A stretch of DNA of 64,000 bases, taken from the IMG/VR virus record IMGVR_UViG_3300047444_000069, positions 1 to 64,000 of that record; one strand, 5' to 3'. This stretch comes from a virus (lineage: Duplodnaviria; Heunggongvirae; Uroviricota; Caudoviricetes). The notes under the pieces were generated by a model that saw only the letters and a program-made list of their open reading frames with translations, had not been told where the DNA came from and made no database searches. Below are positions 5,342 to 52,695 of this stretch, one piece after another. The position numbers and the translations under genes are program-made. Within the stretch, counting starts at the first letter, position 1. Every line of letters starts with the position of its first letter.

Positions 5342-5433
5342 AGTTACCATGAACCCCGAACTGCATTATATCAATGTTGGGGATTCTTGTCAAGATAAAT
5401 ATTCGCGTTCCAACCTCAACAAAGGATACAACT

Positions 5434-5955: not shown

Positions 5956-5968
5956 TCTGTAGACGAAG

Positions 5969-6373: not shown

Positions 6374-6382
6374 GGAATAAAT

Positions 6383-6571: not shown

Positions 6572-6852
6572 AGACGATCATCCATAAGATGCGGTCTATT
6601 CTGATCAAGAAGGCCGTCGAACAAGTAGACGCTGGATTCGCCTGTCCGATCTGCCACGCAACGCATGTCCATAGCCATACCTCGGCGGAAATCGTTGAGT
6701 ATCGCAACAAGCTGAAAGCAAAACTACCGAAAGCTAGTCAACCCAATCCTGCGCCGAAACGCAAACCGGCACCAAAGAAAGATGTTCCGGGTGAAGTGAC
6801 AACTGCGCCGCCGAAGCGCAAAAGATCAAGGAACAACAATCATGGGCGATAA
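6568..6852 (+). CDS. small basic protein with CxxC-Hx3H zinc-finger-like motif
   Basis: 94 aa; 'CPICHATHVHSH'; K/P-rich tail. Confidence 0.45.
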   Translation: MKTIIHKMRSILIKKAVEQVDAGFACPICHATHVHSHTSAEIVEYRNKLKAKLPKASQPNPAPKRKPAPKKDVPGEVTTAPPKRKRSRNNNHGR

Positions 6853-7336
6853 TGTAGAACTGGACGTTGCCCTGTTGCGTCGAGATTCAGAAGCAACAAC
6901 TCAGATCGTCACGAAGCTTGACAACGCAATTGAAAAGCTGACCGACCTCGGAACCGACATGAAGCAGATGTTGGTTCTTCACGAACAACGCCTTGGGCGA
7001 CTGGAAAAGATTGACAACGAAATTCATGGATTGGTTGAAACGCGTCGTGCAGAACTCCAAACCGACATCAACGATTTGGAGGGCAAGGTGGCATCAACAG
7101 TCAAGGAAATTTCGAGCGACATCAACAAGACAGAAGATCGGTTGATGACGGCAATCAAGGGTGTCAAAGACGACATCGAGAAGGACGGTAAGAAGAAGGA
7201 CGAGAACCACGATGCCCTGACCAAGCGAGTAGAAGCCCTTGAAAAATGGCGCTACATCATCATCGGTGGGGGTGTTGCCGTTGGCTTCATCATCGAGAAA
7301 GTTTTACCGATATTTGGGATTGGGTCACATGGATGA
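6842..7336 (+). CDS. coiled-coil protein with C-terminal TM anchor
   Basis: 164 aa; helical heptads; 'YIIIGGGVAVGFIIEKVLPIF' TM. Confidence 0.55.
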   Translation: MGDNVELDVALLRRDSEATTQIVTKLDNAIEKLTDLGTDMKQMLVLHEQRLGRLEKIDNEIHGLVETRRAELQTDINDLEGKVASTVKEISSDINKTEDRLMTAIKGVKDDIEKDGKKKDENHDALTKRVEALEKWRYIIIGGGVAVGFIIEKVLPIFGIGSHG

Positions 7337-7352
7337 CCAAGTTTGTAGATAA

Positions 7353-7380
7353 GACCGCCTTCGGGCGGTTTTGTCGTTTC
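7353..7380 (+). terminator. rho-independent terminator
   Basis: ACCGCC-TTCG-GGCGGT + TTTTGTCGTTT. Confidence 0.7.
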
Positions 7381-7386
7381 TGGGGC

Positions 7387-7415
7387 TTGCAACAAGTCTG
7401 GGAATGTGAGATAAT
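7387..7415 (+). promoter_or_regulatory. sigma70-like promoter TTGCAA-17-(TGa)GATAAT
   Basis: extended -10 TGaGATAAT upstream of primase. Confidence 0.5.
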
Positions 7416-7455
7416 GCTTCTATCGTATCCACTGCATCATGAATAACTGATCTGT

Positions 7456-8517
7456 ATGGCCCTCTACATCGACGTTAAGTACGTCAGCTTCATTGCCAGT
7501 CGTCTCCCGTTGTTTACCAAGAAAGATGCGGCACTCTGGAACTTCCGTTGCCCCATCTGTGGTGATTCCCAGACCAACAAGCGTAAGGCACGCGGCTATC
7601 TGTTCGCAAAGGAACAGAAGCTAATTTTCGCTTGCCACAACTGCGGCGCGAGCATGTCGTTCGGGAAGTTCCTCGATTCGGTCGATCCGGTCCTCTACAG
7701 CGAGTACCGGCGCGAAGTCTACAAGGAAACGAACGGCGGTCGAAGGGAAGTGAAGAAGGTAGAGAAAGAAGACGACGATGATGAACTGGTCAAGAATCTC
7801 GTAAAAACGGATACAGCGGCCCGGTTCGGTCAGAAGGTAGCGGAACACCCTCCGACACTTCTGGACGGCCTGATGGATCGTTTAGACCGTCTGTCGCGCG
7901 AGCATGAAGCTGTCCGGTATGTGATGGATCGACAGATTCCCAAGAATCAGTTCCACAAGATGTACTTCATCGAGAACATGCTGGACATCGTTCAGCTATC
8001 GGATCGATATGAAGGTCGCATCAAGACCAACGAACCGCGCATCGTTCTGCCGTTCTACGACACGAAAGGGCAGTTGACCGGCGTGACCTGTCGGGCCATT
8101 CGTGGCGAATCGCTGCGCTATGTGGTCGTGAAGGTGAAGGACGATGTACCGCTGATCTTCGGTATCAACGAAATCGACCGGAACAAGCTGGCCTACATCG
8201 TTGAAGGTCCGATTGATTCGATGTTCGTACCGAACTGCATCGCGGTTGGTGGAACGGGGATGCAGAAGGCGAAGACTCTGGGCCTGAAGGATACCGTGAC
8301 GATCTTCGACAATCAGCCGCGCAACAAGGACGTATGTCGCCTTCAAGAGAAGGCTATCGCAAGCGGGGATAGGGTTGTCGTGTGGACCCCGCGAGTGACC
8401 CAGAAGGACATCAACGACATGAAGAAGGACGGCGTTGATTACATGAGCATCATCGAATCCCGGACGTTTTCCGGGCCACAAGCAAAACTAGAATTCGAAC
8501 GATGGAAAAAGTGTTGA
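7456..8517 (+). CDS. DNA primase (T4 gp61-like; zinc ribbon + TOPRIM)
   Basis: 'CPICGDSQTNKRKARGY...CHNCG' zinc ribbon; TOPRIM 'IVEGPIDSMF...GGTG'; 353 aa. Confidence 0.8.
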   Translation: MALYIDVKYVSFIASRLPLFTKKDAALWNFRCPICGDSQTNKRKARGYLFAKEQKLIFACHNCGASMSFGKFLDSVDPVLYSEYRREVYKETNGGRREVKKVEKEDDDDELVKNLVKTDTAARFGQKVAEHPPTLLDGLMDRLDRLSREHEAVRYVMDRQIPKNQFHKMYFIENMLDIVQLSDRYEGRIKTNEPRIVLPFYDTKGQLTGVTCRAIRGESLRYVVVKVKDDVPLIFGINEIDRNKLAYIVEGPIDSMFVPNCIAVGGTGMQKAKTLGLKDTVTIFDNQPRNKDVCRLQEKAIASGDRVVVWTPRVTQKDINDMKKDGVDYMSIIESRTFSGPQAKLEFERWKKC

Positions 8518-8714: not shown

Positions 8715-8852
8715 CGTGTGTGCCTGTATGGGACCGATCAAGGGCGAACCATATTGTCCGTGCCAGATGCAACAGTTTCAGCCCGGACGAGTGGCGTAAA
8801 TATCACGCCGATTTACAAACCCTTCTTTTCAACGTAAGACAAGCTGCACTGA

Positions 8853-9952: not shown

Positions 9953-9956
9953 ACAC

Positions 9957-10394: not shown

Positions 10395-10426
10395 GTTAAA
10401 TAGTAACCCGAAATAAGACTTACATC

Positions 10427-12095: not shown

Positions 12096-13795
12096 GCGCA
12101 TCAGTCTATGAACAATTGAGTGTCGAACGTAAGGCACTCCAAACAGAAGGTCTGGTCCCCGAGTGGTACACAACCGCTGGTTTCCAGATGTTCAAGGACA
12201 AGTACGAGTATCAGACCAACGGACAATCTGTTCGTGGTCAGTTCAAGCGTATTGCAGCAACCGCCGCTTCCCATCTTCCTCTGAGTATCGCTGAACTTGG
12301 CGAACAGTGGTTCTTCAAGCTTCTCTGGAATGGTTGGCTGTCCGCATCGACGCCTGTTCTGGCGAACACTGGAACGGATCGTGGACTGCCGGTGTCGTGT
12401 TCTGGCGGCAAGATCGGTGATTCGGTCTATGACTTCTATGCGCACAAGCTTGAAGTTGCGATGTTGACGAAGAACGGTTTCGGAACGTCTGGCTATCTAG
12501 GCGGCATCCGTCCGCGTGGTTCGAAGATCAGCACTGGCGGCAAAGCATCGGGTGTCCTCGATGTCTTCACTGGCCTGATCGATGACATGCGCAAGATCGC
12601 ACAAGGCACAGCACGCCGTGGCGCATATGCGGGCTACCTTGAAGCGGATCATGGGGACTTCGATGAAGTGTGTGATTTCATCTACAACAACCCGGACGAT
12701 GCAAACATCGGTTGGGTCATCACTGATGCGTTCGTTGCGCGTCTGGAAGAAGGCGATGTAGATACGCATCGACGCTTCAAGAAGATGCTGAAGCTGAAGA
12801 TGGTGCATGGTAAGGGCTACTTCTTCTTCGTAGACAAGGCAAATCGTCATCGTCCAGAGATGTACAAGAAGCTGGACCTTCGCATCAACAACAGCAACCT
12901 GTGTTCGGAAATCATGCTGTTCAACGATGAAGATCACACGTACACCTGTGTTCTGAGTTCGATGAACGTCGCTAAGTACGACGAGTGGAAAGATACGGAA
13001 GCGGTGTATTGGGCGACCATCTTCCTTGACTGTATCGCGGCTGAATTCATTCAACGGGCCAAGAAGATTCCGGGTCTGGAACGCGCTGTTCGCTTCACCG
13101 AGAAGGGTCGTGCTTTGGGTCTGGGGCAATGTGGTTTCCATACCTACCTGAAGCAGAACATGATCGCTTATGAGTCGTTCGAAGCGCACATGAAGAACCT
13201 CGAAATCGCGAAGCACATCTGGGACAAGTCGCTCGAAGCATCGCAGTTCATGGCTATCGAGATGGGTGAACCGGAATGGTGTAAGGGCTATGGTGTTCGC
13301 AACACGCACCGTATCGCCATCGCGCCTACGAAGTCCACAGCGAACTTGATGGGCGGCGTGTCCGAAGGTATCAACCTCGATCCGGCGAACGTCTACAACG
13401 CGTCTGGTGCGGCTGGTGAGATGGATCGTATTGATCCGGTCTTCTTGGCACTGATGAAGGAACGCGGCCACTTCAACAAGAAGGTCGTTGCCGACATCGC
13501 AGACAAGCAGGGTTCGGTTCAACATCTGACTTGGTTGACTGATGAAGAAAAGGCAGTGTTCCGCACTGGTTTCGAAATCAACCAAAAGACTCACGTTCGG
13601 ATGTGTTCGACGCGTGGCCGGTTCATCGATCAATGGCAGTCGGTCAACCTGATGTTCGCGGCTGATGAAGATGAAGAATGGATTTCCGAAGTCCATCAAG
13701 ACATCTTCCTTGACGAGAACATGCTTGCAAGCTACTACATCTATACGTCCGCTGGCGTTCAAGCGGCAAAAGGTGATTGCGAGGCTTGCCAATAA
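12092..13795 (+). CDS. nrdA: ribonucleotide reductase large subunit (class I NrdA-like, short form without ATP-cone)
   Basis: 567 aa; active site 'SNLCSEIML'; C-terminal redox pair 'CEAC'; ATGA-coupled to nrdB. Confidence 0.8.
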   Translation: MSASVYEQLSVERKALQTEGLVPEWYTTAGFQMFKDKYEYQTNGQSVRGQFKRIAATAASHLPLSIAELGEQWFFKLLWNGWLSASTPVLANTGTDRGLPVSCSGGKIGDSVYDFYAHKLEVAMLTKNGFGTSGYLGGIRPRGSKISTGGKASGVLDVFTGLIDDMRKIAQGTARRGAYAGYLEADHGDFDEVCDFIYNNPDDANIGWVITDAFVARLEEGDVDTHRRFKKMLKLKMVHGKGYFFFVDKANRHRPEMYKKLDLRINNSNLCSEIMLFNDEDHTYTCVLSSMNVAKYDEWKDTEAVYWATIFLDCIAAEFIQRAKKIPGLERAVRFTEKGRALGLGQCGFHTYLKQNMIAYESFEAHMKNLEIAKHIWDKSLEASQFMAIEMGEPEWCKGYGVRNTHRIAIAPTKSTANLMGGVSEGINLDPANVYNASGAAGEMDRIDPVFLALMKERGHFNKKVVADIADKQGSVQHLTWLTDEEKAVFRTGFEINQKTHVRMCSTRGRFIDQWQSVNLMFAADEDEEWISEVHQDIFLDENMLASYYIYTSAGVQAAKGDCEACQ

Positions 13796-14274
13796 TGTTT
13801 GACTCCCAGAAGGTCTTCTGGGTTAAGGCGTCTTTCGCTGAGAAGCGGGACGCCTTTGTTCCTTTCGCTGACCTGATAACCCCACAGTACTCGCATGGCG
13901 AACGTATCCTTCCCTCTGTCCGGTCGGCCATGATCCGCGAACAGATGGTCAAACTGAAGCGAGCATACGACCATGCCGTGATTCGTTCGTTGACTGATCC
14001 GATCTGGCGACAGCTTGACCAAAGTCGGTCATGGTGGACCCTGACCCCGGCTGATGTGAATCGCGAACTTCTTGAAGAACGGGTCCATGATCCGGTCAGT
14101 GTCGTGTCAGAGATGATCGACACCTTCAACGCGGGAAGGGTCGAAGCCCCGATCATCGTCATCAACCGCTTTGAAGGTGACAAGCAGTATCGCCTTGTGT
14201 CCGGGAACCTTCAGTTGATGATCTGTCGGTCATCTCGCATCATTCCCAAGTGTGTTTTTGTTGAACTGGACTGA
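13795..14274 (+). CDS. hypothetical protein
   Basis: 159 aa; start overlaps nrdA stop (TAATG). Confidence 0.5.
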   Translation: MFDSQKVFWVKASFAEKRDAFVPFADLITPQYSHGERILPSVRSAMIREQMVKLKRAYDHAVIRSLTDPIWRQLDQSRSWWTLTPADVNRELLEERVHDPVSVVSEMIDTFNAGRVEAPIIVINRFEGDKQYRLVSGNLQLMICRSSRIIPKCVFVELD

Positions 14275-14289
14275 CAGACGTGCTATAAT
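14261..14289 (+). promoter_or_regulatory. sigma70-like promoter TTGAAC-17-(TGc)TATAAT
   Basis: extended -10; overlaps end of preceding gene. Confidence 0.55.
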
Positions 14290-14322
14290 GCGTCATCTCA
14301 ACTAGAAAGAGTAAACAAACAA

Positions 14323-14838
14323 GTGCGTACCATTTTTCTCGACCTCGATGGGGTCATGGTAGATTTTGATAGCCATTTTGAATCACTTCATGGCCGTACC
14401 CCGAAGGAAGTAGGCGAAGAAAACTTTTGGAAGGTCTTCGACACGAAGCGTGACGGATTCTTCCGTGACTGTCTACCGTTCGAAGGACATCTTCAGTTCC
14501 TTGGTGAAGTTGAAGATGTTGCCGATCATTTCGGCTTCAAGGTCGAAGTCCTAACGGCGCTTCCGCGTCGATCCACGCATCCGACTGCGCACCAAGAGAA
14601 GCAAGACTGGTTGAATATTCACGGAATGAGCCACATTCCCATGAATGTCGGTCCCTATGCCATCGACAAGCAGAAGTGGTGCAAGCCGGGTGACATCCTG
14701 ATCGATGACAAAGACCTGAACATCATCCAGTGGCGCACGAAAGGTGGTCTGGGGATTCACCATATTCCCGGTGACTTTCTGACATCGTATCGCACGCTTC
14801 GGGCCTACGCATCGTCCTGTGACCTCTCGGAAGAATGA
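14323..14838 (+). CDS. HAD-superfamily phosphatase (5'-nucleotidase-like)
   Basis: GTG start; motif I 'FLDLDGVMVD'; 171 aa. Confidence 0.65.
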   Translation: MRTIFLDLDGVMVDFDSHFESLHGRTPKEVGEENFWKVFDTKRDGFFRDCLPFEGHLQFLGEVEDVADHFGFKVEVLTALPRRSTHPTAHQEKQDWLNIHGMSHIPMNVGPYAIDKQKWCKPGDILIDDKDLNIIQWRTKGGLGIHHIPGDFLTSYRTLRAYASSCDLSEE

Positions 14839-15065
14839 GAATCCGCGTCCAGTACAACGATGCCAAGCGGCTGCTGATCATCCATAACGCGGACCAATTG
14901 TTGGCCGTCTATAAGGACATCGATTGGACCACGGCGCACGTCATTCGGCGTGGCCTGTTTGACGCGGAAACCTTGATTAAGCTGCATCCCGAGAAAACGC
15001 TTGTAGATTTTCTCCACGAATTGAATGATCCACCAAAAGATGAAGAATGGAACTGCCCAACATAA
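14835..15065 (+). CDS. hypothetical small protein
   Basis: 76 aa. Confidence 0.4.
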   Translation: MRIRVQYNDAKRLLIIHNADQLLAVYKDIDWTTAHVIRRGLFDAETLIKLHPEKTLVDFLHELNDPPKDEEWNCPT

Positions 15066-15541
15066 TCTTTCTTGATTTCGACGGGGTGATTTGTAATCCC
15101 CGCGCGTGTATTGCAACCCGAGATACGGGCGGGGTATTTTCGTATCTCGATCCGATTGCCTGTCTTCTGGTGAAGCGGCTGTGCGAAGATAATAACGCGA
15201 AGCTGGTTATCTCGTCGTCATGGCGCATCCTGTACGACCGTTTCTCGATTCAAAGCATCCTGAATGCCGCGTGCCCGAAGCTTGGTAGCTTCATGTGGCA
15301 GGGGACCGATTGGTGTACGCCGAATCATAACGGTGGTGATGGCAATTACTTCGGTCGTGGTCGCGAGATTCAGGCATGGATTCGAAACCATTCGTCTGAA
15401 TTCCAACGGTTCGTGATCCTCGATGACGATTCGGACATGGACCCGTACATGGATTCGCTGGTCAAGTCGGACACCTATGACGGTATCGGCTATCACCAGT
15501 GGCGTGCGGCGGATAATATCCTGAGCGGTAAAACAGATTGA
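15047..15541 (+). CDS. HAD-superfamily phosphatase, second copy
   Basis: motif I 'FLDFDGVI'; 164 aa; paralogous to 14323..14838. Confidence 0.65.
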   Translation: MELPNIIFLDFDGVICNPRACIATRDTGGVFSYLDPIACLLVKRLCEDNNAKLVISSSWRILYDRFSIQSILNAACPKLGSFMWQGTDWCTPNHNGGDGNYFGRGREIQAWIRNHSSEFQRFVILDDDSDMDPYMDSLVKSDTYDGIGYHQWRAADNILSGKTD

Positions 15542-15549
15542 AAGAAGAA

Positions 15550-15981
15550 ATGATCTTGGCGCACATGGATTGCGCCGAACGATATGCCCGACTGTCGAAA
15601 GCACGACGCCTGAAAGTTGGTGCGTTGGTGGTTGATGGGGATAAAGTCATCTCCATCGGCTACAACGGTACGGCCCCCGGTGCAGACAACAACTGCGAAA
15701 TCGAACCGGAAAATTGGGACGGCGACATTCGCACGCTGAAGACCAAGCCAGAAGTAATACACGCAGAAGTGAACGCGCTGCGCAAGTTAAACTGGTCGGT
15801 TGATGGTACATCCGATGCATATGGCGCTAACCTGTTCTGTAACTTCGCGTGCTGTCTTCCGTGCGCAAAAGAGATGGTGGATTACGGAATCGGTCGTTTC
15901 TTTTACCGTTATGCCTATCGGGACACTTCTGGGCTGGACTATCTGGAAGAAAACGGCGTAAAAGTCCGACAGATCGTGTAA
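15550..15981 (+). CDS. dCMP deaminase
   Basis: 'HAEVNAL' and 'CCLPCAKEM' zinc-binding motifs of cytidine/dCMP deaminases. Confidence 0.75.
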   Translation: MILAHMDCAERYARLSKARRLKVGALVVDGDKVISIGYNGTAPGADNNCEIEPENWDGDIRTLKTKPEVIHAEVNALRKLNWSVDGTSDAYGANLFCNFACCLPCAKEMVDYGIGRFFYRYAYRDTSGLDYLEENGVKVRQIV

Positions 15982-16025
15982 GTCCTAAATACGTGAGAAT
16001 GAATTAACTATGGAGGATCATTCTC

Positions 16026-16181
16026 ATGCCAACCACGCACTTCGAATGTAATGATTGCGAAGCTGTTTTCGCCGTCAAGCATTCACTTAACAAAGACTAC
16101 TACCGTGTTCTGAATTGTCCGTTCTGCGGGTCGGAGCTAGACAACGAGGAATATGACGTAGACGAGAACATAGATGAATAA
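16026..16181 (+). CDS. small zinc-ribbon protein (51 aa)
   Basis: 'CNDCEA...CPFCGS'; SD GGAGG; not in ORF track (<60 aa); CTAAATA motif + hairpin in leader. Confidence 0.5.
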   Translation: MPTTHFECNDCEAVFAVKHSLNKDYYRVLNCPFCGSELDNEEYDVDENIDE

Positions 16182-16395
16182 AGAAGTAGCAAAGATCGTC
16201 ATTTACTACACTGACGGCACGTATCAAGAAGTCCAAGCAATCGCAGCACCGAAGCCCTATACCGGCATCCGTGGTCCATTCGAAGCACAACCGGCAACGG
16301 AACCGCTACCGAACCCCGATGATTATTACTATCCCGGAAAGATCGGAACATGGCCGCATCCGCCCGCCGACACCGGTATCAAGATCGTAGACTGA
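16174..16395 (+). CDS. hypothetical protein
   Basis: 73 aa; ATGAATAA overlap with upstream stop. Confidence 0.45.
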   Translation: MNKEVAKIVIYYTDGTYQEVQAIAAPKPYTGIRGPFEAQPATEPLPNPDDYYYPGKIGTWPHPPADTGIKIVD

Positions 16396-16401
16396 GCCGC
16401 A

Positions 16402-16441
16402 TAAATACCCATACATTCAAAACGTATGGGTATTTTCATTT
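16402..16441 (+). terminator. rho-independent terminator
   Basis: AAATACCCATAC-loop-GTATGGGTATTT + TCATTTAT. Confidence 0.65.
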
Positions 16442-16843
16442 ATGTGGTTGTATCAAGGCAAAGAACAAACTGAAATTCCGGCTGGCATGGTTGGCTTCGT
16501 GTATCTAATCACTGACCATGTGAATAACAAGAAGTACATCGGTAAGAAGCTGTATCATTTTGCCAAGACCAAACAAGTCAAAGGCGTCAAGAAGAAGTAC
16601 AAGGCCGAATCAGATTGGCGCGAGTATTACGGATCGAATGACGAACTGAAGGCACTGGTCGAACTACACGGTCCCGAGAAGTTTACGCGCGAAATTCTTC
16701 ACCAATGCCCGAACAAGGGGGCTGCGAATTATTGGGAAGCCTATGAGCAATTCGTGCGCCACGTCCTGCTTTCGGACGAATATTACAATGGCTGGATTTC
16801 CGCAAAAATTACCAAAATGCATGTTGCCAAGCTGCGCAAGTAG
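16442..16843 (+). CDS. free-standing GIY-YIG nuclease-domain protein (short, no obvious DNA-binding domain)
   Basis: 'GFVYLITDHVNNKKYIGKK' GIY-YIG; 'REYYGSN' second motif; 133 aa. Confidence 0.65.
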   Translation: MWLYQGKEQTEIPAGMVGFVYLITDHVNNKKYIGKKLYHFAKTKQVKGVKKKYKAESDWREYYGSNDELKALVELHGPEKFTREILHQCPNKGAANYWEAYEQFVRHVLLSDEYYNGWISAKITKMHVAKLRK

Positions 16844-16853
16844 TCTGTAGAAT
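16824..16853 (+). promoter_or_regulatory. candidate promoter TTGCCA-18-TAGAAT
   Basis: 'tctgTAGAAT' resembles -10 of repeated cassette; lies in 3' end of GIY-YIG gene. Confidence 0.35.
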
Positions 16854-16896
16854 TATCCCCGCACCGATCAGGCGGTGTTTACAAAGGGGAACAATC

Positions 16897-17400
16897 ATGC
16901 AGGTAGTGGCTAATGCCGTAGTACCTTTCCAAACCTCTATGGAAGCTGCATTCGCACCGTGGGCCATCGTCGAAAAATGGTTGCGCAAGGCCCGAGAACA
17001 CGACCTTCCTATCTCGATCAATGGCTTGATGGGGATGGAAGAAGTCACCAAGATCGTCAACGGTCCACAACAAGTCCGGGACATCATCAGCGCGTTCCAA
17101 GCAAAGAAAATGGTCACGAAGCACGAACTGACCGAAGAACAGCGTACTGGCGACAAGCGCGACCGCATCGGCTACATGTGGAACCCTGAGTTCCGTGGCG
17201 AACCATATCGGCCCGCCATCAAGCCCAACAAGAAGCCATCCAAGCCCACGACGACCAAACCAAGTGTTGGGGTCGCTCATTCTTCCGAGAAGGCCAAGCA
17301 CGCCGCTCCAAAGGCCGTAGAACTCGTCTTCCAAGGCGTGACGCTGGTAGTCAGCCGAAATCCAGAGAACGGAAACACCCGCATCGTCATCGAAGGGTGA
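16897..17400 (+). CDS. hypothetical protein
   Basis: 167 aa, basic P/K-rich linker. Confidence 0.5.
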   Translation: MQVVANAVVPFQTSMEAAFAPWAIVEKWLRKAREHDLPISINGLMGMEEVTKIVNGPQQVRDIISAFQAKKMVTKHELTEEQRTGDKRDRIGYMWNPEFRGEPYRPAIKPNKKPSKPTTTKPSVGVAHSSEKAKHAAPKAVELVFQGVTLVVSRNPENGNTRIVIEG

Positions 17401-17406
17401 CCCAAA

Positions 17407-17440
17407 AGCCCGACCAGTGATGGTCGGGCTTTTGTTTTTC
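17407..17440 (+). terminator. rho-independent terminator
   Basis: AGCCCGACC-agtgatg-GTCGGGCT + TTTGTTTTT. Confidence 0.75.
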
Positions 17441-17450
17441 GGAGACGATC

Positions 17451-17684
17451 ATGAATCTGTTCCGTATCTCCCTGTTCGGCGGGAGCGAGTTGTTTCATAC
17501 TGAAGATACGCCATTCGAATCGTATGCCGATGCTGAAATCTACGCCGTATCGGAAGCTAAGATTTCTGGTGCATGTTTGTACACCGTGGTTGATTTAACA
17601 AACTTGGGAATTGTTGTTGACAAGGTTCCCGCGTTTGGGTATGATTCATACATCGACAGCAAACACCAAACGAAGAACCTCTAG
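17451..17684 (+). CDS. hypothetical small protein
   Basis: 77 aa. Confidence 0.45.
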   Translation: MNLFRISLFGGSELFHTEDTPFESYADAEIYAVSEAKISGACLYTVVDLTNLGIVVDKVPAFGYDSYIDSKHQTKNL

Positions 17685-17695
17685 GAGAGTAGAAC

Positions 17696-17956
17696 ATGTT
17701 GAGACTTCCCCCGCAAGACAGCGCGATCCGCGAGTGTTTCGATACGGCACATCTGGCTGAACTGTGTGCGCCTGAGAACCGGCTGAAGCTTCCGACCTTC
17801 CGCGAAGCCCTGACGAATGCCAAGGCGTTCTTCTTGGAAAACAAGAGCGTGCGGAACGTCAATTCGGTCACGCTGCGCGCCGATGGCGAACTGTGGCTGA
17901 TCCAAGTGGGACCGCGCGGCGGCTGGAAAGTGTTGTGGAACTTTGGTCAACTGTAG
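17696..17956 (+). CDS. hypothetical small protein
   Basis: 86 aa. Confidence 0.45.
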   Translation: MLRLPPQDSAIRECFDTAHLAELCAPENRLKLPTFREALTNAKAFFLENKSVRNVNSVTLRADGELWLIQVGPRGGWKVLWNFGQL

Positions 17957-17959
17957 TAC

Positions 17960-17988
17960 TTGACATGTTCCCACGTTTGGGGTAATAT
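17960..17988 (+). promoter_or_regulatory. early-type promoter TTGACA-17-TAATAT (spacer CCCACGTTTGGGG)
   Basis: member of repeated cassette, 'CCCACGTTTGG' subtype. Confidence 0.6.
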
Positions 17989-18010
17989 TCATACATCGGA
18001 AAGAGAAGCC

Positions 18011-18253
18011 ATGATTCTGAATAACTCACAAGCCGAAGCAGTCTACAGCGCGATGCGCGTATTGAACAACATCAGTGGCATGATACATGTCGTGATGCCC
18101 GGAATGACGGCTGGTCATACGATCACCGTGTCTCAGGAAGTGGTGTCGCGTAAGGTGGTGATCAACCTTCGTTCGATGATTGAACTCGAACCGATCAGCA
18201 CCGAACAATATAAGGACCAGAACCATTTCATGCGTGCTTACGAACTGGAATAA
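18011..18253 (+). CDS. hypothetical small protein
   Basis: 80 aa; SD GAGAAG upstream of ATG 18011. Confidence 0.5.
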   Translation: MILNNSQAEAVYSAMRVLNNISGMIHVVMPGMTAGHTITVSQEVVSRKVVINLRSMIELEPISTEQYKDQNHFMRAYELE

Positions 18254-18280
18254 AATACAACAAACCACAGCGAGGAAACC

Positions 18281-18478
18281 ATGAGTCTGACCCGTAGCGA
18301 AAGTGAACTGCTGGAAGCCCGAGAGGGTGAACTGAACGACGCCGAACGTGGCGTGATCGATGCGACCTTCGATGCCCTCGAAGAAGCTGCAACGATCCGT
18401 GGTGTGAAGCTGGCCCGCGATGATCGCGTGGCGGCACTGGAAGCTGCGCTGGTCCGATTCCTTCTGGCATCTCGATAA
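18281..18478 (+). CDS. hypothetical small acidic protein
   Basis: 65 aa. Confidence 0.4.
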   Translation: MSLTRSESELLEAREGELNDAERGVIDATFDALEEAATIRGVKLARDDRVAALEAALVRFLLASR

Positions 18479-18491
18479 CAGGGAGTGAACG

Positions 18492-18788
18492 ATGAATAAA
18501 GAACGCCGCAAGGCCATCTCGAAGGTCCATGAGGAATTCGACAATATCAAGTCCGACTATGACGAAATCATCGGTCGGTTCGATGACCTCAAATCCCAGA
18601 TCGAAGCGATTCGGGACGACGAACAGGAAGCCCGAGACAACCTTCCCGAGAACCAACAGGAAGGCGACAAGGGTCAAGCCATGACGGACGCCATCGAGAA
18701 CCTTGAAAGCGCCATCGAGACGATTGAATCCCTGATGGAAGTCGATATGGAATCCATCATCGACAACCTGAACAGCGCATCAGACTAA
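18492..18788 (+). CDS. hypothetical acidic coiled-coil protein
   Basis: 98 aa, D/E-rich. Confidence 0.45.
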   Translation: MNKERRKAISKVHEEFDNIKSDYDEIIGRFDDLKSQIEAIRDDEQEARDNLPENQQEGDKGQAMTDAIENLESAIETIESLMEVDMESIIDNLNSASD

Positions 18789-22473: not shown

Positions 22474-24006
22474 ATGAGCAAGCAATGTCCGCATTGCGAA
22501 TCTGCGAAGGTGCAGAGTCGCGGGACCAAAACCAATCAAGCGGGTAGCACACGAAACCGCTATCAGTGCATGGACTGCCTGAAGTGGTTCAGCACCGTGG
22601 TAAGTGAAGTGGTAGAACCGGAAGTCGTCGTTCCTCGATTCAGTTCCAGTACGCCCAAAGATTTCGAAGGATATGAACGCTTCGTCATCTCGGCTGTGCA
22701 GAACGACACATCGGTCAACAAGCAATTCCTTGAATCGCTGAAGCGGTACTGCGAAGTCAACAAGGCCAAATTGATCCTTGTGCCGATCACCTGCAAGGCG
22801 AACGACGACTCACAGTACTGTGTCGATCCTGAATTGCTGGTGACGCAAGATGTGTTGCTGTCGAAGAAGCTTCGTCTGTTGGCCCATGTGCAGATCAGTC
22901 CGACCATCGCAACGCCGTTGGCTGGTATGGATGAACAGAGCAAGGGCAACAGCCTGATTATCGCGCATCCACAGCTTCAGATGCGGACCCTTGCGACACT
23001 CGAAGACTCTCCGATCCAACTTTGGACCACTGGTGCGATCACTTATGACAACTATGCACAGACGAAGACAGGCGAAAAGGCGAAATTCAACCATTCGCTT
23101 TCTGCCCTTGTCGTTGAAAAAGACCATAATCAGTTCTACTGTCGTGTCCTTAATTGCGACGACGATAATGGATTCTACGACCTCGATCTATATTACAGCC
23201 CGACCGCCGTTCGTTCGACGGGCCAAGTAGAAGCCCTGATTACGGGCGATGAACACGCGATGTTCACGTCTCCCGAAGTGAAGGCCGCGACCTACACTGG
23301 CGAGGGTTCGTTGACGAATCTGTTGAGGCCCAAGAAGATTGTGCGCCACGATGTGCTGGACTTCTTCACTGGTTCGCACCATCACCAACACAGCTTCCTG
23401 CTTCAGTACGCAAAGCACAAGACTCGAACGAATATCGTTGAAGATGAACTGACGCTGACCTTGCGCTACATCGCAGAGACGACGCCATCGTATGCGGAAA
23501 ACATCATGGTCGCATCGAATCACGTTGAGCACATGAACAAGTGGCTTGACACGATTGATCCGAAGACTGAAGTTTGGAATGCCAAGCTTTACTACCGGAT
23601 GATGTACCTGATGCTGGAACACATTGATAGGAATGGCATCGACATCCCGAACGCGTTCCAGATGTGGGTCGAAACTACGTCACATGATTTCGATGAACCG
23701 AAGCTTCGCTGGTTGGGTCGCAATGAACCGTTCAAGATTCATGGCATCGAACTGTCGAATCACGGCGACATGGGTATCAACGGTTCGCGTGGTAGTCCCA
23801 CACAGTTCAGCCGTCTGCCTGACAAGATGGTAGTTGGACACAGCCACAGCCCGAGCATCATGAAGGGTTGCTACACGGTCGGAACATCGACTGGTCGGTT
23901 GGAATACACGAAGGGTCCGTCCTCATGGGCGAACAGCCATGTCGTGATCTATCCCAACGGAAAAAGGCAGTTGGTCACGATCATCAACGGCAAGTATCGT
24001 CTTTAA
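22474..24006 (+). CDS. metallophosphoesterase with N-terminal zinc ribbon
   Basis: 'CPHC...CMDC' ribbon; 'ITGDEHA', 'SNHVEH', 'SNHGDMG', 'GHSHSP' phosphoesterase motifs; 510 aa. Confidence 0.6.
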   Translation: MSKQCPHCESAKVQSRGTKTNQAGSTRNRYQCMDCLKWFSTVVSEVVEPEVVVPRFSSSTPKDFEGYERFVISAVQNDTSVNKQFLESLKRYCEVNKAKLILVPITCKANDDSQYCVDPELLVTQDVLLSKKLRLLAHVQISPTIATPLAGMDEQSKGNSLIIAHPQLQMRTLATLEDSPIQLWTTGAITYDNYAQTKTGEKAKFNHSLSALVVEKDHNQFYCRVLNCDDDNGFYDLDLYYSPTAVRSTGQVEALITGDEHAMFTSPEVKAATYTGEGSLTNLLRPKKIVRHDVLDFFTGSHHHQHSFLLQYAKHKTRTNIVEDELTLTLRYIAETTPSYAENIMVASNHVEHMNKWLDTIDPKTEVWNAKLYYRMMYLMLEHIDRNGIDIPNAFQMWVETTSHDFDEPKLRWLGRNEPFKIHGIELSNHGDMGINGSRGSPTQFSRLPDKMVVGHSHSPSIMKGCYTVGTSTGRLEYTKGPSSWANSHVVIYPNGKRQLVTIINGKYRL

Positions 24007-24536
24007 GCCGCTGGTGTAGCGCGCTTCAGAACATCGTCCTTATGTCCTTCGTACTTGACCGGCACATGATGCTGGTTGAGTACGACTGTCATACCATTGG
24101 CTGTGTAGCCGTGGTATCCATGATCAAGGACGGCGCGTTCGAAGTCGTTGCCTTTTTCTTCACCGTTGTATTTGTGAGTTTCCGCAGTCTTGTTGATCGC
24201 AGCACGTTCGTCTGAATGTGCCGTCACAGGATCATAAATGCCATGCAGCGTTGCGCTGTGTACGTGCATCCCCAGACCGCCTTCATGCACAGGCGGCAAT
24301 GCGCCATGTTCGGACTTGTTGTGGTTATAGAAATATACCCTCGACTTGATCCGGTCATCCTTCGTCCACTGAAGGCGCTTCCCTTCTTCTCCCTTGATTC
24401 CCTTCCCAGAATAGCGACCGTCCAGATGGTCGAGTCCCGGCTTATTCGAATAGTGAATGCCGTGGACAGTCGCGCCCTTCGTCGGCGCAGCTTCCTCGCG
24501 TTCGGCAAGGAACGATCTAAAAGTTTTCATTGACAT
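24003..24536 (-). CDS. His/Gly-rich protein (family member 1)
   Basis: 177 aa from 'MSMKTF'; SD GGGGG; many HG/HxH pairs; CTAAATA motif ~22 nt upstream on minus strand. Confidence 0.5.
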   Translation of the reverse strand: MSMKTFRSFLAEREEAAPTKGATVHGIHYSNKPGLDHLDGRYSGKGIKGEEGKRLQWTKDDRIKSRVYFYNHNKSEHGALPPVHEGGLGMHVHSATLHGIYDPVTAHSDERAAINKTAETHKYNGEEKGNDFERAVLDHGYHGYTANGMTVVLNQHHVPVKYEGHKDDVLKRATPAA

Positions 24537-24559
24537 AGCCCCCAATGTTGTAGTATTAT
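24530..24559 (+). promoter_or_regulatory. sigma70-like promoter TTGACA-15-TAGTAT
   Basis: drives 24593 gene; divergent from the minus-strand gene. Confidence 0.5.
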
Positions 24560-24592
24560 TTAGGTTCAATACAACACCGGGAGAGACGCCCC

Positions 24593-33742: not shown

Positions 33743-35098
33743 ATGTACACAGCGAACATCCATCTGCCACAAAACTTCGTCCTTGAATCGGACTCCTACA
33801 AGTTTTCCCATGTCCCAGAAATCTACCCGGAAGGTACGGAAGCATTGCACGCGTATCTGTCGGCACGCGTGAAGGGTCAACGCGTGGTCCAGTTCGGTCC
33901 CTCGATGTGGATCAAGAAGAAGCTGCTGTCCCCGATCACACTGAAGATGATCAACGAAGCTGATGACTTCATCTCGGCGCACATCGGCCCCGGCGCATTC
34001 AATCGTGCGTTCTGGCTTCACATCCTGAACACGTATGGCGGTTTCATTCCGCTGACGATCCGTGGTCTGCCAGAAGGTACGGTCACGGACAGCTACGACA
34101 CGTTGCTGACGATTCAATGTGACGATCCGGTCTGCTTCCCGCTGGCACAGTTCATCGAAGCATCGCTTCAGTCGGACCTCTGGTACAGCACGACCATCGC
34201 GACGAACGATCTGGAAAACTACGAAGTCGCCAAATCGCACTTCGATTTGTTCTCGGATCAACCGCATCTTCTGCCGTTCATGCTGCATGACTTTGGCGCG
34301 CGGGGTTGTACGTCCGAAGAACAGCGTCAGATCGGCGGCGCTGCGCACCTGATCTTCTTCCAAGGTTCGGACACGATCAGCGGCATCCGTGCAGCAAACC
34401 TGTACTATGGCTGCGAGATGGCCGCGTATTCGGTTCGCGCAACTGAGCACAGCATTCAGTGTGCGTATGGTCCCGAAGGGCAAGAAGCCTACATTCAACG
34501 CGTTCTTGACGCACATGCAAAGCCGGGTAACATCGTCTCGCTGGTGCTTGATGGCTACAACGTCTGGCGCGAAGCTGAACTTCTGTGTACGAAGTTCAAG
34601 GAACAGATCGTCAACAGCGGCGCGAAGATCGTGTTCCGTCCTGATTCGGGCGACATGTTCGAAGTGGTTCCGCGTCTTCTGGAAATGCAAGCTGAAGCGT
34701 TCAGCTACACGGTCAATAGCAAGAACAAGAAGGTCATCAACAATGTCGGCCTGATTCAAGGCGATGGCATCGACAAGACCACGTTCATGTTGATGATGCA
34801 GAAGGTCGTATCCCTCGGCTATGCACCTGAATGCGTCGTCATGGGTTCTGGTGGTGGTCTGCTTCAGAAGGTCAACCGCGATACCCTGAAGTTCGCACAG
34901 AAGGCATCGTCCATCAAGATCAATGGCGAGTGGCGCGATATTTTTAAAGACCCGATTACCGATCCGGGCAAGAAGTCCAAGACGGGTTTGCAAGACGATC
35001 CGCGTTTCGTAACGTACTACACGCCCGATGAAGGTCTGGTATACAACGAAGACCTTGCAACGATCCGGGAACGTGCGTTCGCTGGCGCGGCTGTGTAA
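33743..35098 (+). CDS. nicotinamide phosphoribosyltransferase (NadV/NAMPT)
   Basis: 451 aa; N-terminal 'DSYKFSH' and overall PRTase type II features; adjacent to NadM-Nudix as in vibriophage KVP40. Confidence 0.75.
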   Translation: MYTANIHLPQNFVLESDSYKFSHVPEIYPEGTEALHAYLSARVKGQRVVQFGPSMWIKKKLLSPITLKMINEADDFISAHIGPGAFNRAFWLHILNTYGGFIPLTIRGLPEGTVTDSYDTLLTIQCDDPVCFPLAQFIEASLQSDLWYSTTIATNDLENYEVAKSHFDLFSDQPHLLPFMLHDFGARGCTSEEQRQIGGAAHLIFFQGSDTISGIRAANLYYGCEMAAYSVRATEHSIQCAYGPEGQEAYIQRVLDAHAKPGNIVSLVLDGYNVWREAELLCTKFKEQIVNSGAKIVFRPDSGDMFEVVPRLLEMQAEAFSYTVNSKNKKVINNVGLIQGDGIDKTTFMLMMQKVVSLGYAPECVVMGSGGGLLQKVNRDTLKFAQKASSIKINGEWRDIFKDPITDPGKKSKTGLQDDPRFVTYYTPDEGLVYNEDLATIRERAFAGAAV

Positions 35099-42274: not shown

Positions 42275-42481
42275 ATGCGAGTGACCCTCAACAAGATCAA
42301 CGCGGCAATCAAGGCCGCTGGCGGCGAAGACGAACTGGTCCGTGGTAATGGCTACTTCTACTTCGTTGGTGAAGACACCCCGAAGTGGCATCAGGCAAGC
42401 GTCTACACAATGTTCCTGAGTGACTTCACCGTGGAAGAATGGGTTGATATGTGGCGATCCATGAGTGGAAAAGCTAAATAG
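42275..42481 (+). CDS. hypothetical small protein
   Basis: 68 aa from 'MRVTLNK'. Confidence 0.45.
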   Translation: MRVTLNKINAAIKAAGGEDELVRGNGYFYFVGEDTPKWHQASVYTMFLSDFTVEEWVDMWRSMSGKAK

Positions 42482-42542: not shown

Positions 42543-43421
42543 ATGAAGACCTTCCATCAACTACGCCGGTACTTGAATGACCTTCCCCTGATCAGCGAAG
42601 AACTGCATCAGTCGATCACCAACGTTCTCGATTCGGAACACATCAAGCCCGAGCACAAGCTGAACCACGTTTCGTCGGCAATCCGCACGGCTATCAAGAA
42701 CGGCGAAGATCATGGTCTGGAAGATGCGAAGCCGAAGAAGGGTTCCAGTCGTGCCGTGTTCTTCCCGAAAGACCCGCACAAACTGAAGATCGATGGCGTC
42801 GATACGCACATGCCTACGGCCCTGAAGGTCGCGTTCCCCGGCCAATTGGACAAGTATAAGCATCATGACGAACCGTTGCTTGGAGAGGAACAGAACCGCG
42901 TAGAAGGCGATCATTGGACCAATCAACAGTATGGCGTCCTACGTCACGGTGATCGGTCTGGCGAGTACCATACGAACGAGCACGGCTTCCTTGCGCCGAT
43001 GCTGCACGCCCATGATGAAGGGCATCACATCCACTTCGGTAAGATCGAACCAATCAAGGCCGGTGACTTCCAGAAGCACACGAAAGCGCCCGGATTCGAG
43101 AAGGGTATCAGCCATCAGGAAATGTTCGACTACCTGAACCATCATCACGCAGAGGCACACGGACAGTCCTATACGGGCAAGACTTCGCCCGAGCGCATCG
43201 AGAAGCTTGACGATCACCCGATCCTCAACAACATGCACGGATGGATGGGTAACACTGGCGCACATCCCGCCGATCTAAACAAGCGGAACATGGGCATCTG
43301 GACGCATCCGGTGACGGGAAACAAACACATCGTGGTCAGCGACTACGGCTACACAGGTGATGTCGCCAAGCAGTACATGCAGCGACGACAGCGAGCAAGC
43401 AAAGCAATGCGGGGTTGGTAA
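42543..43421 (+). CDS. His-rich protein (family member 2)
   Basis: 292 aa, ~12% His incl. 'HAHDEGHHIHFG', 'NHHHAEAHG'; CTAAATAG 62 nt upstream. Confidence 0.6.
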   Translation: MKTFHQLRRYLNDLPLISEELHQSITNVLDSEHIKPEHKLNHVSSAIRTAIKNGEDHGLEDAKPKKGSSRAVFFPKDPHKLKIDGVDTHMPTALKVAFPGQLDKYKHHDEPLLGEEQNRVEGDHWTNQQYGVLRHGDRSGEYHTNEHGFLAPMLHAHDEGHHIHFGKIEPIKAGDFQKHTKAPGFEKGISHQEMFDYLNHHHAEAHGQSYTGKTSPERIEKLDDHPILNNMHGWMGNTGAHPADLNKRNMGIWTHPVTGNKHIVVSDYGYTGDVAKQYMQRRQRASKAMRGW

Positions 43422-49055: not shown

Positions 49056-49106
49056 GGGTTCCTCGAAAGGCTAAATATTGATGTACATATTAGCCCGAAG
49101 GAACCC
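49056..49106 (+). promoter_or_regulatory. SD-sequestering leader hairpin containing CTAAATA late-promoter-like motif (T4 gene e-type)
   Basis: GGGTTCCTCG 49056-49065 pairs CGAAGGAACCC 49096-49106 (SD AAGGAA in 3' arm); CTAAATAT 49071-49078 in loop. Confidence 0.5.
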
Positions 49107-49109
49107 TAA

Positions 49110-49619
49110 ATGTCTTATACCCTGTCCGCAGCGGGCGCGAACCTAATCAAGCAGTTTGAGGGATGCAAACTCACTGCCTATTACGATTCGGTTGGTGTCC
49201 TCACAATCGGCTACGGAACGACCAACAGCGTCCTTCCGGCAAGCCAACAGATAAAACCCGGTCAAACGATCACTCTCGCACAAGCTGAGATTTTCCTCGC
49301 ACTTGGCGTGAATAAGTTCGCACCCGGCGTCAACAATCTGGTCAAGATTCCAATTTCTCAGAATGAGTTCGATTCGCTGGTTTGCTTCGCCTACAATGTT
49401 GGGACGGGTAACCTAGCTTCGTCAACACTCTTGCGCAAATTGAATGCTGGCGACATCGCTGGCGCACAGAAAGAATTCCTGAAGTGGAACAAAGCTGGTG
49501 GTCAAGTTCTTCGCGGACTGACGCGTCGGCGTCTCGCAGAAGCAGCGAACTTTGGTCCCCTGACGCGCCAACAACTGATCGATCAGTGTCTTGGTGGTAT
49601 CGATCCCGATAAAGCATAA
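49110..49619 (+). CDS. GH24 lysozyme / endolysin (T4 e-like)
   Basis: 'LIKQFEGCKLTAYYDSVGVLTIGYG' matches T4 lysozyme Glu/Asp/Thr catalytic region; 169 aa. Confidence 0.8.
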   Translation: MSYTLSAAGANLIKQFEGCKLTAYYDSVGVLTIGYGTTNSVLPASQQIKPGQTITLAQAEIFLALGVNKFAPGVNNLVKIPISQNEFDSLVCFAYNVGTGNLASSTLLRKLNAGDIAGAQKEFLKWNKAGGQVLRGLTRRRLAEAANFGPLTRQQLIDQCLGGIDPDKA

Positions 49620-49630: not shown

Positions 49631-50908
49631 ATGTCCCTTAATTTTTGGCAGATGCGCGGCCAACTCGATGCCCTGAACCTGATCACCGAAGAACTGACTT
49701 CGGTTGAGAAGGATACGCATCTGGAAGTCACGCCGTCGCACATGAAGAAGCCGTTGCACGCTGGCACAGCTATCGAGCATCGCGGCAATCCTTCGCACTA
49801 CGGTCCTGATGGTCACGCGGCACTCGATGCGCATGTCAAGTCGGTACTCGCGGACCCGTCCAAGAACAGCGTCCATAAGTCGGCAGACAGCTACACCAAG
49901 GAACATCGCGGCCACAGCTACGAGTTCCATGACGATCAGCCTAAGTCCTCGCTACGCAAGCAATATGTGATCGGGAAGACGTATGATCTGGCAACCCAGA
50001 ACAACCCCGAGTACAAGCGTTCAGTCTTTGATGGCTACGTGAAGAATCGCCCGGACATCATCAAACAGACTCGCGCGCATGACTATGATTCGATGGTGCA
50101 TGGATCGTACAAGGCAGTTGCGAAGGAAACGAACGCACAGTTCGAACACATGCCGGTGCGCACGCAGTATCACGATGGTCACATGGGCTATCACAACAGC
50201 GGTGAGATGCTTCGCGACATCCACGGCCACAACAACCTGACGGTGTATCGCGGCGGTGATCGTCACGAATTCCTGCACCACACGGACAAGACCGGCCTGA
50301 ACGAGAACGAGAAGTTTCGCGCGGTTCATGACTACTACGGTCATGGCATCTACGGCAACCAGTTTGGTCCGAAGGGTGAAGAAGTGGCGTGGCACTCGCA
50401 CCGCAAGATGTTCTCGCATGGTGCGGCAGTGGCGATGACATCAGAAACACGCGGTCAGAACAGCTACGTGAATTACACGCACGCGAATCTTGGCACGCAG
50501 AAGGAAATGGAAGGCCATCGCAAGGACAAGCACGCGGCACTGAATACTGGCGACTTCGAAGGCGCGAATCATGCCGATGCGAAGCTTCGTGAGGCTGGTG
50601 GTAAGTGGAACTACGCGAAGCAAGCGTCCGTTGCACTGCCCCATGAGATGCTTCACCCGCACTTCGATGGCAATGCGCCGAATTCAATTGCACGCCTGTT
50701 GCACGATCCGGCTGCGAAAGAGAACCCGACCTATGATGTCCACAAGGACCATTTGGGTTTGGTCGATCTGGCCCGCCATCACAACACGTCTTCGCACAAC
50801 CGTCAGGGCGGCGGTGTTCTGGATCGAGAGAATGCACATTCCGATCTGAAGCACATCGCTGGCGTGCATGGATACCAAAAATTGAGTCACAACCCGTTTC
50901 GGGGATAA
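49631..50908 (+). CDS. His-rich protein (family member 3)
   Basis: 425 aa, ~13% His; 'YHDGHMGYHNSGE', 'HDYYGHGIYG'. Confidence 0.6.
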   Translation: MSLNFWQMRGQLDALNLITEELTSVEKDTHLEVTPSHMKKPLHAGTAIEHRGNPSHYGPDGHAALDAHVKSVLADPSKNSVHKSADSYTKEHRGHSYEFHDDQPKSSLRKQYVIGKTYDLATQNNPEYKRSVFDGYVKNRPDIIKQTRAHDYDSMVHGSYKAVAKETNAQFEHMPVRTQYHDGHMGYHNSGEMLRDIHGHNNLTVYRGGDRHEFLHHTDKTGLNENEKFRAVHDYYGHGIYGNQFGPKGEEVAWHSHRKMFSHGAAVAMTSETRGQNSYVNYTHANLGTQKEMEGHRKDKHAALNTGDFEGANHADAKLREAGGKWNYAKQASVALPHEMLHPHFDGNAPNSIARLLHDPAAKENPTYDVHKDHLGLVDLARHHNTSSHNRQGGGVLDRENAHSDLKHIAGVHGYQKLSHNPFRG

Positions 50909-52189: not shown

Positions 52190-52695
52190 TCCAAACATTC
52201 AAAGAATTTCTAATCGAGAAGTATGGGACGGCGGGGACGTATGCCGCGATGAAGTTCTCGCACACATCCGAACTGAATATCCGTAAGTTCCTCGTTCAGA
52301 ATGATGTCCCCAATTCGGTCCCACAAGACAAGCTGCATGTGACGCTGCTGTACTCGCGCAAGCCGATGGTCGGATATACGCCACGCGGCACGCTAACGGA
52401 GCCTGAGAAGGTCCGCGTCCTTGACTTTGCTGTCTGGGATACTCAGAACGGAAAGAAGGCGCTAGTGGCGCTCCTAGACGCTCCGAAGCTGATCATCCGA
52501 CACAAGGTTCTGATGCAGCAGTATGACGGCACGTATGACTTCCCGGATTACAAGCCACACTTCACCATGTCCTACGATGTTGGCCCCGACTTCAACAAAG
52601 ACAGTTTGCAAAAATTGACCGAACCGCTGTATCTCGACCGTGAGTATGGCGAAGAATTGAACACGAACTGGAAAGCAGATGACAAAACTGATTGA
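52186..52695 (+). CDS. 2H phosphoesterase superfamily protein (LigT/2'-5' RNA ligase-like)
   Basis: two H-x-T-x motifs: 'HVTLLYS' and 'HFTMSYD'; 169 aa. Confidence 0.6.
   Translation: MIQTFKEFLIEKYGTAGTYAAMKFSHTSELNIRKFLVQNDVPNSVPQDKLHVTLLYSRKPMVGYTPRGTLTEPEKVRVLDFAVWDTQNGKKALVALLDAPKLIIRHKVLMQQYDGTYDFPDYKPHFTMSYDVGPDFNKDSLQKLTEPLYLDREYGEELNTNWKADDKTD

Follow-up and report, generated by a model that had tools for sequence, protein, structure and literature searches.

Few injected phage proteins are known, to our knowledge, outside T4 (Ip1-3 and Alt) and P1. In T4 the prohead protease follows the cleavage rule (L/I)xE. Otherwise unrelated T4 internal proteins reach the prohead core by means of a leader, the capsid-targeting sequence, which gp21 afterwards cuts off (PMC3012670, PMC5694885). 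The mature Ips are Lys-rich, non-enzymatic inhibitors of GmrSD-type restriction, 76-185 aa in length (PMC12373910), and solid-state NMR places the lysines of the internal proteins in contact with DNA (PMC3012670). Alt is a head-targeted ADP-ribosyltransferase that is processed by the prohead protease, injected, and modifies host proteins (PMC5512222, PMC9503650, PMC5694885). The polyvalent proteins of phages and conjugative elements are predicted to be effectors that are injected (PMC5512222).

Overall, we believe that three genes in the DNA analysed here, a stretch of 64,000 nucleotides from an IMG/VR virus record (the window), belong beside these systems. Proteins A, B and C appear to be unrelated, enzyme-like cargo with a T4-type leader, most likely packaged into the head and injected as effectors, a reading that we hold with reasonable, if less than full, confidence. 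The group resembles IPI, IPII and IPIII in its leader, which has the form MKT[F/Y]..F... and ends in [I/L]-x-E, on members that are otherwise unrelated. The resemblance extends to a late-promoter-like context, to the position of one gene directly downstream of lysozyme, and to the tandem arrays of leader-bearing genes in relatives. At the same time, the predicted cargoes differ from the T4 Ips in being 165-405 aa long, enzyme-like, 9-10% His and near neutral in pI, in a phage that is only distantly T4-like. T4 Alt offers a precedent for enzymatic cargo and has no homology to A, B or C. With the large polyvalent proteins the link lies in the B-core and C-like domains described below, and in the delivery of pre-made effectors together with the DNA (PMC5512222), which would hold here as well; the difference is that B and C are separate small genes, each with its own T4-type leader, rather than modules of one giant. 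On our best reading, the system departs from the T4 internal proteins in its enzyme-like cargo and its convergent His enrichment.

Three conserved genes and their N-terminal leaders

To judge from its genes, the window comes from a myovirus that resembles T4 only distantly. It encodes a gp41 sharing 54% identity with cyanomyovirus gp41, as well as PhoH, a T4 e-type lysozyme (PF00959), DNA ligase, Acb1 and NAMPT, and gp33 can be listed with gp59 and gp32 among its T4-like features. A 177-kb relative carries an annotated gp59/gp32 neighbourhood, to which putative window ORFs beginning at 53325 and 54344 correspond. Within the window there are no head genes. Neither megablast with the window as query nor tblastn with A found a match among cultured phages. 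A 148-aa ORF (52249..52695, +) between a cell-wall hydrolase and the putative gp59/gp32 region matches the anti-CBASS protein Acb1 (PF23474, E 2e-32), a gene also found in the 177-kb relative.

A, B and C are real, conserved genes (Table 1); their coordinates, strands and lengths are as first described, and each has homologues. There are 110 for A, at 30-90% identity, and more than 322 for B, while for C a word-seeded search found 24 and a profile search of cluster representatives 1068. The AlphaFold models of A and B are confident (pLDDT 90 and 92.5, respectively). A search of Pfam, PHROGs and NCBIfam with the three proteins and every sequence in their alignments returned no curated family, the PHROGs match being to B-core only (phrog_3170, of unknown function); an 'Organ_specific' hit from these scans was set aside as compositional.

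Table 1. Positions of the genes, domains and promoter-like motifs discussed in the text, numbered from the first nucleotide of the window.
Feature	Coordinates	Strand	Description
Protein A	42543..43421	+	292 aa; leader and truncated protein-kinase-like domain
Leader of A	42543..42599	+	MKTFHQLRRYLNDLPLISE (aa 1-19); predicted capsid-targeting sequence, ends in I-S-E
Kinase-like core of A	42705..43418	+	Invariant alignment columns, secondary-structure order, fold matches
CTAAATA motif of A	42474..42480	+	Late-promoter-like; 63 nt upstream of A start
Phage lysozyme (T4 e family)	49110..49619	+	PF00959, E 2e-46; stop 12 nt before B
CTAAATA motif of lysozyme-B unit	49071..49077	+	33 nt upstream of lysozyme gene
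Protein B	49631..50908	+	425 aa; leader, helical N-terminal region, B-core, C-like remnant tail
Leader of B	49631..49690	+	MSLNFWQMRGQLDALNLITE (aa 1-20); weaker match to targeting sequence, ends in I-T-E
B-core domain	50039..50530	+	aa ~137-300 of B; phrog_3170
B tail	50723..50890	+	aa ~365-420; homologous by transitivity to C-terminal half of C-like domain
Protein C	24003..24536	-	177 aa (175 from second Met); leader and stand-alone C-like domain
Leader of C	24501..24536	-	(MS)MKTFRSFLAE, then REE
C-like domain of C	24042..24467	-	aa ~24-165; consensus over 195 segments
CTAAATA motif of C	24557..24563	-	21 nt upstream of C

Only one genuine sequence link joins the three, as their alignments indicate: a short N-terminal leader that the preliminary description missed. 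The sole BLASTP match between A and B joins their N-termini (residues 4-47 and 5-48), and when the A and C families are compared by hhalign the leader 'MKTFxxF' alone aligns. The globular parts show no mutual similarity, either in pairwise BLASTP or in hhalign comparisons of the three family alignments (probability <5%). The three had been grouped as a family; with similarity limited to the leader, that grouping falls away, this being the very result that the preliminary description had named as refuting it.

The leaders were compared with the N-termini of IPI, IPII and IPIII taken from the T4 genome. IPI starts with MKTFKEFTSTTTPVSTITE followed by A, and protein A with its 19-residue leader followed by E, I-x-E ending at residue 19 in both; IPII and IPIII start with MKTYQEFIAE followed by A, where C has (MS)MKTFRSFLAE followed by REE. 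Identity to the T4 leaders is thus 5/7 for A (against IPI) and 6/10 for C (against IPII/III). The leader of B, which starts MSLNFWQ... and is followed by E, is a weaker match, and the relatives of B start with MKTF, MKSF or MKNF. The putative prohead-protease sites are I-S-E19 in A, I-T-E20 in B and L-A-E12 in C. In the family alignments the linker that precedes the leader-end Glu varies in length and sequence, and the Glu itself is nearly invariant in each family: E19 in A, where H22 is nearly invariant as well, E20 in B, and E12 in C, whose family has the leader consensus M[KQ][ST]F..F[LV]AERE. The leader pattern and its Glu are kept across homologues of 30-90% identity, and the models lose confidence nowhere but in the leaders, with low pLDDT at residues 1-20 of A and 1-19 of B. 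In a count over all six frames of the window, starts of the form MK[ST][FY] belong only to A and C out of 883 Met-initiated frames that reach 40 aa or more. The leader was not found in polyvalent-type B homologues or in embedded C-like domains. The [LIVM]xE motif is short and frequent by chance, occurring within residues 7-40 of 43 of the 67 leaderless long B homologues, and being so commonplace it argues only weakly, taken alone, for a prohead-protease site.

The leader is also found well beyond these three genes. In a sample of 44 IMG/VR loci around A homologues (671 kb), the leader together with [LIVM]xE is present in 25 genes from nine mutually unrelated families, and in several loci the leader-bearing genes form tandem arrays (MKTFKEFISE..., MKSFKEFIYE..., MKTFKEYISE..., MKTFTKFMSE..., MKSFKEFISE...) that are comparable with the hyperplastic T-even ip loci. 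Of all the evidence gathered here, these arrays speak most strongly, we suggest, for the leader as a modular signal in this phage clade. Five different leader-bearing genes, some directly adjacent, are found per locus in L017 (~4800-15250), L018 (~2790-12500) and L031 (~8250-18000); one 141-aa array member has 0% His and a DUF6321 domain. A further leader-bearing protein of 584-671 aa and 7-8% His, which begins MKSFLEHLTEAV..., occurs at 10894-12873 (+) of L041 and also in L035, L042 and L049. It matches DUF6267 and has a TLGH motif and a KHDG motif reminiscent of ligase/capping nucleotidyltransferases, and is possibly another packaged enzyme.

The transcriptional setting may resemble that of T4 internal proteins. 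CTAAATA, a putative late promoter in what appears to be a T4-like genome, is found at 10 sites in the window against 1.8 expected, a number reached in none of 100 shuffles, and nine of the 10 are followed by a start codon at a distance of 21-100 nt. The preliminary description had noted the motif, and it does precede all three transcription units, B being served through the lysozyme gene. Seven other sites lie at 1675, 15985, 47720, 53775 and 54238 (+) and at 63421 and 63929 (-); six of these are 27-100 nt upstream of ORF starts, among them that of the putative gp32-like gene at 54344. In T4, ipIII follows e just as B follows lysozyme here, and the 177-kb relative has the same order. The earlier statement that the proteins have no T4 counterpart is thus wrong in the functional sense: their N-termini match the IPI, IPII and IPIII leaders, and B holds the position of ipIII after lysozyme. 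C is a lone minus-strand gene within a long plus-strand run, and its stop overlaps by 4 nt that of a convergent ORF (22474..24006, +) encoding a 510-aa protein with a Cys-rich N-terminal region (CPHC...CMDC) and no Pfam match.

Could A, B and C instead be late enzymes of the cytoplasm that never enter the head, the MKTF leader being a translation-initiation or some other N-terminal feature? Not every late T4 gene encodes a virion protein, the lysozyme gene ahead of B being an example, B has a degenerate leader, and packaging is itself a prediction. We nevertheless consider this unlikely. The leader is kept at the protein level across very divergent DNA (homologues of 30-40% identity), is followed by a conserved [ILV]xE, and is attached to at least nine unrelated families in the clade; it starts only two of the 883 Met-initiated frames of the window, and it matches the experimentally defined T4 capsid-targeting sequence almost residue for residue. 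The B and C domains, moreover, belong to the repertoire of injected polyvalent effectors.

The general pathway for packaged and injected cargo can be outlined by analogy with T4. The A, B and C units would be transcribed late from a CTAAATA-type promoter, and the leader (MKTF..., ~10-20 residues) would direct each protein to the scaffolding core of the assembling prohead. A gp21-type prohead protease would then cut after the Glu of [I/L/V]-x-E, that is, after E19 of A, E20 of B and E12 of C. The mature protein would be kept in the DNA-filled head and injected with the DNA, and would act on the host before phage gene expression.

Domains of the predicted cargo

Protein A contains, in order, a Gly-rich loop (G67-S68-S69), Lys95, Glu121, H241-P-x-D244...N249 and D267-Y-G269. 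K95, E121, D244, N249 and D267, candidates for the beta3 Lys, alphaC Glu, catalytic Asp and Asn, and Mg-binding Asp of kinases, are invariant or nearly so, and lie in the order and on the secondary-structure elements that such residues would occupy. The model of A has the N-lobe and catalytic core of the kinase fold; only one helix follows the DFG-like motif, and A consequently has no C-lobe. We infer from the model that A is a truncated, minimal protein-kinase-like enzyme in which the putative ATP-binding and phosphotransfer residues are kept and which may be active. Curated kinase families do not recognise it: there was no Pfam hit for A at E<=1 and no NCBIfam hit, and a weak ABC1 hit appeared in three of 35 relatives of A (E 0.065). 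Profile searches of PDB sequences with A1, A2, A3 and A4 returned nothing meaningful, a cGAS match for A (E 0.13) being judged a chance one. In the fetched polyvalent proteins the A profile, a relaxed hmmsearch and a regular expression found no A-like or kinase-like domain. A thus differs from Kinase-PolyVal and from RIO/Bud32-type minimal kinases in having no significant HMM match to any kinase family, and it differs from T7 gp0.7, which is made after infection and is not packaged. The neighbourhood of A consists of small unknown genes between dsbA and ligase.

B and C are built from domains that are also found in polyvalent proteins. B-core, whose invariant residues are H212, R230, H233-D234, H238, E250-E251, H257, E272, R274 and Q276-N277, occurs inside giant polyvalent proteins and in cluster C mycobacteriophages. 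For example, in Mycobacterium phage Asterius (L004) the homologue is gp109 (6686..7987; phrog_3170, present in about 200 phages), which lies ~5 kb downstream of the genes for the major capsid protein and the head fibre and may also be virion-associated. The C-like domain carries the motifs HYS, GxGIKGxE..R, RxYFY, ExGLG, NxFE and GY(D/H)GY. The top matches among the 1068 hits of the C profile are mostly internal segments of proteins of 2000-4500 aa that also carry LPD37, LPD38, ART-PolyVal, InPase or Zeta_toxin domains, which mark these giants as 'polyvalent' injected effectors (PMC5512222); in Limnohabitans phage DC33 the C-like domain lies within a 3125-aa ORF.

The two domains keep company. 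B and C-like domains occur together in 85 fetched proteins (local hmmsearch), and B-core, here aa ~147-278 of B, lies ~30-450 residues upstream of the C-like domain in 22 giants and downstream of it in one (P0342). In the Pfam-scanned giants ART-PolyVal follows the C-like domain, giving the order B-core, C-like, ART-PolyVal, and the C-like domain is followed at a distance of less than 60 residues by 28 of the 76 ART segments in the fetched proteins. Because the C-like domain thus lies between B-core and an ADP-ribosyltransferase in giants, B and C are probably functionally coupled and act in one pathway. Proteins of 450-730 aa have a complete C-like domain after B position ~350, the C-terminal half of which aligns to the T4-like B tail, and in the fused proteins P0197 and P0168 the B-tail profile and the C profile hit one and the same segment. 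The B tail is therefore a remnant of a C-like domain, and this homology, as read from the profiles, is the true source of the 'HGY' pattern common to B and C.

No ART was found in the window, and B and C are associated only with H-Y-D-type ART-PolyVal in other phages, whereas T4 Alt is an R-S-E ART. The C-like domain was also considered as a possible divergent ART; when C-like and ART-PolyVal segments were compared by hhalign (probability 38%, E 3e-4), only the C-terminal GYDG element aligned. The window encodes a nicotinamide phosphoribosyltransferase at 33743..35098 (+; NAMPT_N + NAPRTase, E 2e-40), a phage NAD+ salvage gene that may be of interest, given that in other phages ADP-ribosyltransferases accompany the B and C domains.

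As to what B does, its model has no recognisable fold match, and neither B-core nor the C-like domain matches any Pfam LPD model. B carries a helical domain in which a His/Asp/Glu constellation is conserved, and our guess is that it is possibly a metal-dependent hydrolase. Motif and helix order suggest a zincin-like peptidase or an HD-type hydrolase, assignments that we rejected since no search supports them; B-core has no HExxH or HExxxH helix followed by a Glu-ligand helix in a zincin fold.

These domains also bear on whether the three proteins might be components of the prohead core or scaffold, that is, assembly factors degraded or expelled at maturation rather than injected effectors. The T4 core proteins gp22, gp67 and gp68 are, after all, cut by the same protease as the internal proteins (PMC5694885). 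Nonetheless, A, B and C are globular, confidently folded and enzyme-like, with conserved residues of catalytic type, and phages whose heads are quite unlike this one's carry homologous domains, as do conjugative elements according to the literature (PMC5512222). A scaffolding role therefore seems to us highly improbable.

Histidine content of leader-bearing proteins

The trait by which the three proteins were first noticed is real. His makes up 10.3% of A, 10.4% of B and 9.0% of C, whereas the 72 ORFs of the window that are 100 aa or longer average 3.2% (sd 2.2). Gly shows just a modest increase. The sole other ORF above 7% (18026..18550, -; 10% His) is probably spurious, being antisense to the plus-strand ORFs 17960..18253 and 18281..18478, and owes its His to GTG/ATG-rich codons read backwards.

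The arrangement of this His is another matter. Recurring HG, HxH and GYH patterns had been pointed out, and these prove to be at chance for the composition: HG and GH counts do not stand out from shuffled sequences of the same composition (p = 0.11-0.45), and His pairs within three residues number 6, 8 and 4 in A, B and C against 8.1, 12.0 and 3.8 expected. The His is dispersed rather than clustered, and in none of the three are there HxH or HH runs conserved in position. Columns with at least 80% His in the family account for only 7 of the 30 His of A, 8 of the 44 of B and 2 of the 16 of C. Family means stay near ~8%, and His is found somewhere in 150-180 columns in A and B and in 81 in C.

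These observations weigh on the explanation offered at the outset, in which A, B and C are paralogous His/Gly-rich metal-binding virion or decoration proteins, or enzymes with unusual His metal centres. Such an explanation would accommodate the 9-10% His of all three, the invariant His of A (H22, H157, H161, H225, H255), B (H212, H233, H238, H257) and C (H28, H91), and the His/Asp/Glu constellation of B-core, which could bind a metal. Yet the globular parts have no homology, most His falls in non-conserved columns where positions turn over while content is kept, HxH, HH and HG are at or below chance, and 1-3% His is enough for the leaderless homologues of B and C, so domain function does not require the extra His. 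Nor is there any signal or fold typical of an outer-capsid decoration protein. We regard this explanation as very unlikely, and His-based metal centres in particular sit poorly with dispersed, mostly unconserved His in unrelated domains. What does survive of the earlier proposal is the idea of virion proteins, probably as internal head proteins, packaged and injected, to which the leader points, and not as decoration proteins. Metal binding by scattered surface His is possible.

In place of a metal-binding family, the data point to a property of the leader-bearing, presumably packaged proteins as a class. Median His in B homologues is 7.8% in the T4-like proteins of up to 430 aa against 1.3% in the polyvalent type, and in the match columns that the two share it is 7.9% against 2.9%. 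Solo C has 6.6%, compared with 1.9% for the C-like segments in giants, and the solo versions of the two domains hold three to six times more His than the polyvalent ones. The A family stands at 7.9%, and its leaderless members number only three. Across the 44 loci of the relatives, median His is 6.5% in leader-bearing genes and 2.1% in the 771 other genes (Mann-Whitney, p = 5e-7 by gene and p = 0.002 with one value per family). At the same time, His across the leader-bearing families ranges over 0-8.3%, and some of them are not His-rich. Rather than a catalytic or metal-cluster feature, His richness appears to be a compositional trait gained independently by the packaged proteins of this clade, a clade-specific tendency.

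What might such a tendency be for? The T4 internal proteins are Lys-rich, with 1-2% His. In mature A, B and C, K+R is about equal to D+E, the pI is 7.1-7.5, and the computed charge at pH 5.5 is +22, +35 and +13, respectively. Dispersed His could accordingly act as a switchable charge, near neutral in the cytoplasm and polycationic beside packed DNA. We go further only with diffidence, in a proposal that we ourselves hold to be rather unlikely: that the enrichment is adaptive and convergent in proteins that travel in the head, the His serving as titratable counter-ions that take the place of the T4 lysines, bound to DNA when protonated in the strongly negative surroundings of packed DNA, and neutral and released at cytoplasmic pH. 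In the literature searched, we found no description of convergent His enrichment in leader-bearing proteins.

Possible consequences for T4-like phages

Injected proteins act before phage gene expression, and are for that reason front-line tools of counter-defence. The apparent conservation of a T4 capsid-targeting leader far outside the T-even phages suggests that the leader can be used as a search handle for injected cargo in metagenomes, and the CTAAATA sites could serve to define the late regulon of this phage. The cargo itself appears to be enzymatic, comprising a minimal kinase and two domains that are otherwise buried in giants and are now accessible as small proteins. The ~8% of dispersed His, which is missing from the non-packaged homologues, hints at an undescribed physical constraint on the co-packaging of protein and DNA. 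Should the His enrichment indeed prove adaptive, His and leader together would flag an arsenal of injected enzymes in uncultured T4-like phages, one to which no fewer than eight other families would belong in addition to the kinase and the B and C modules.
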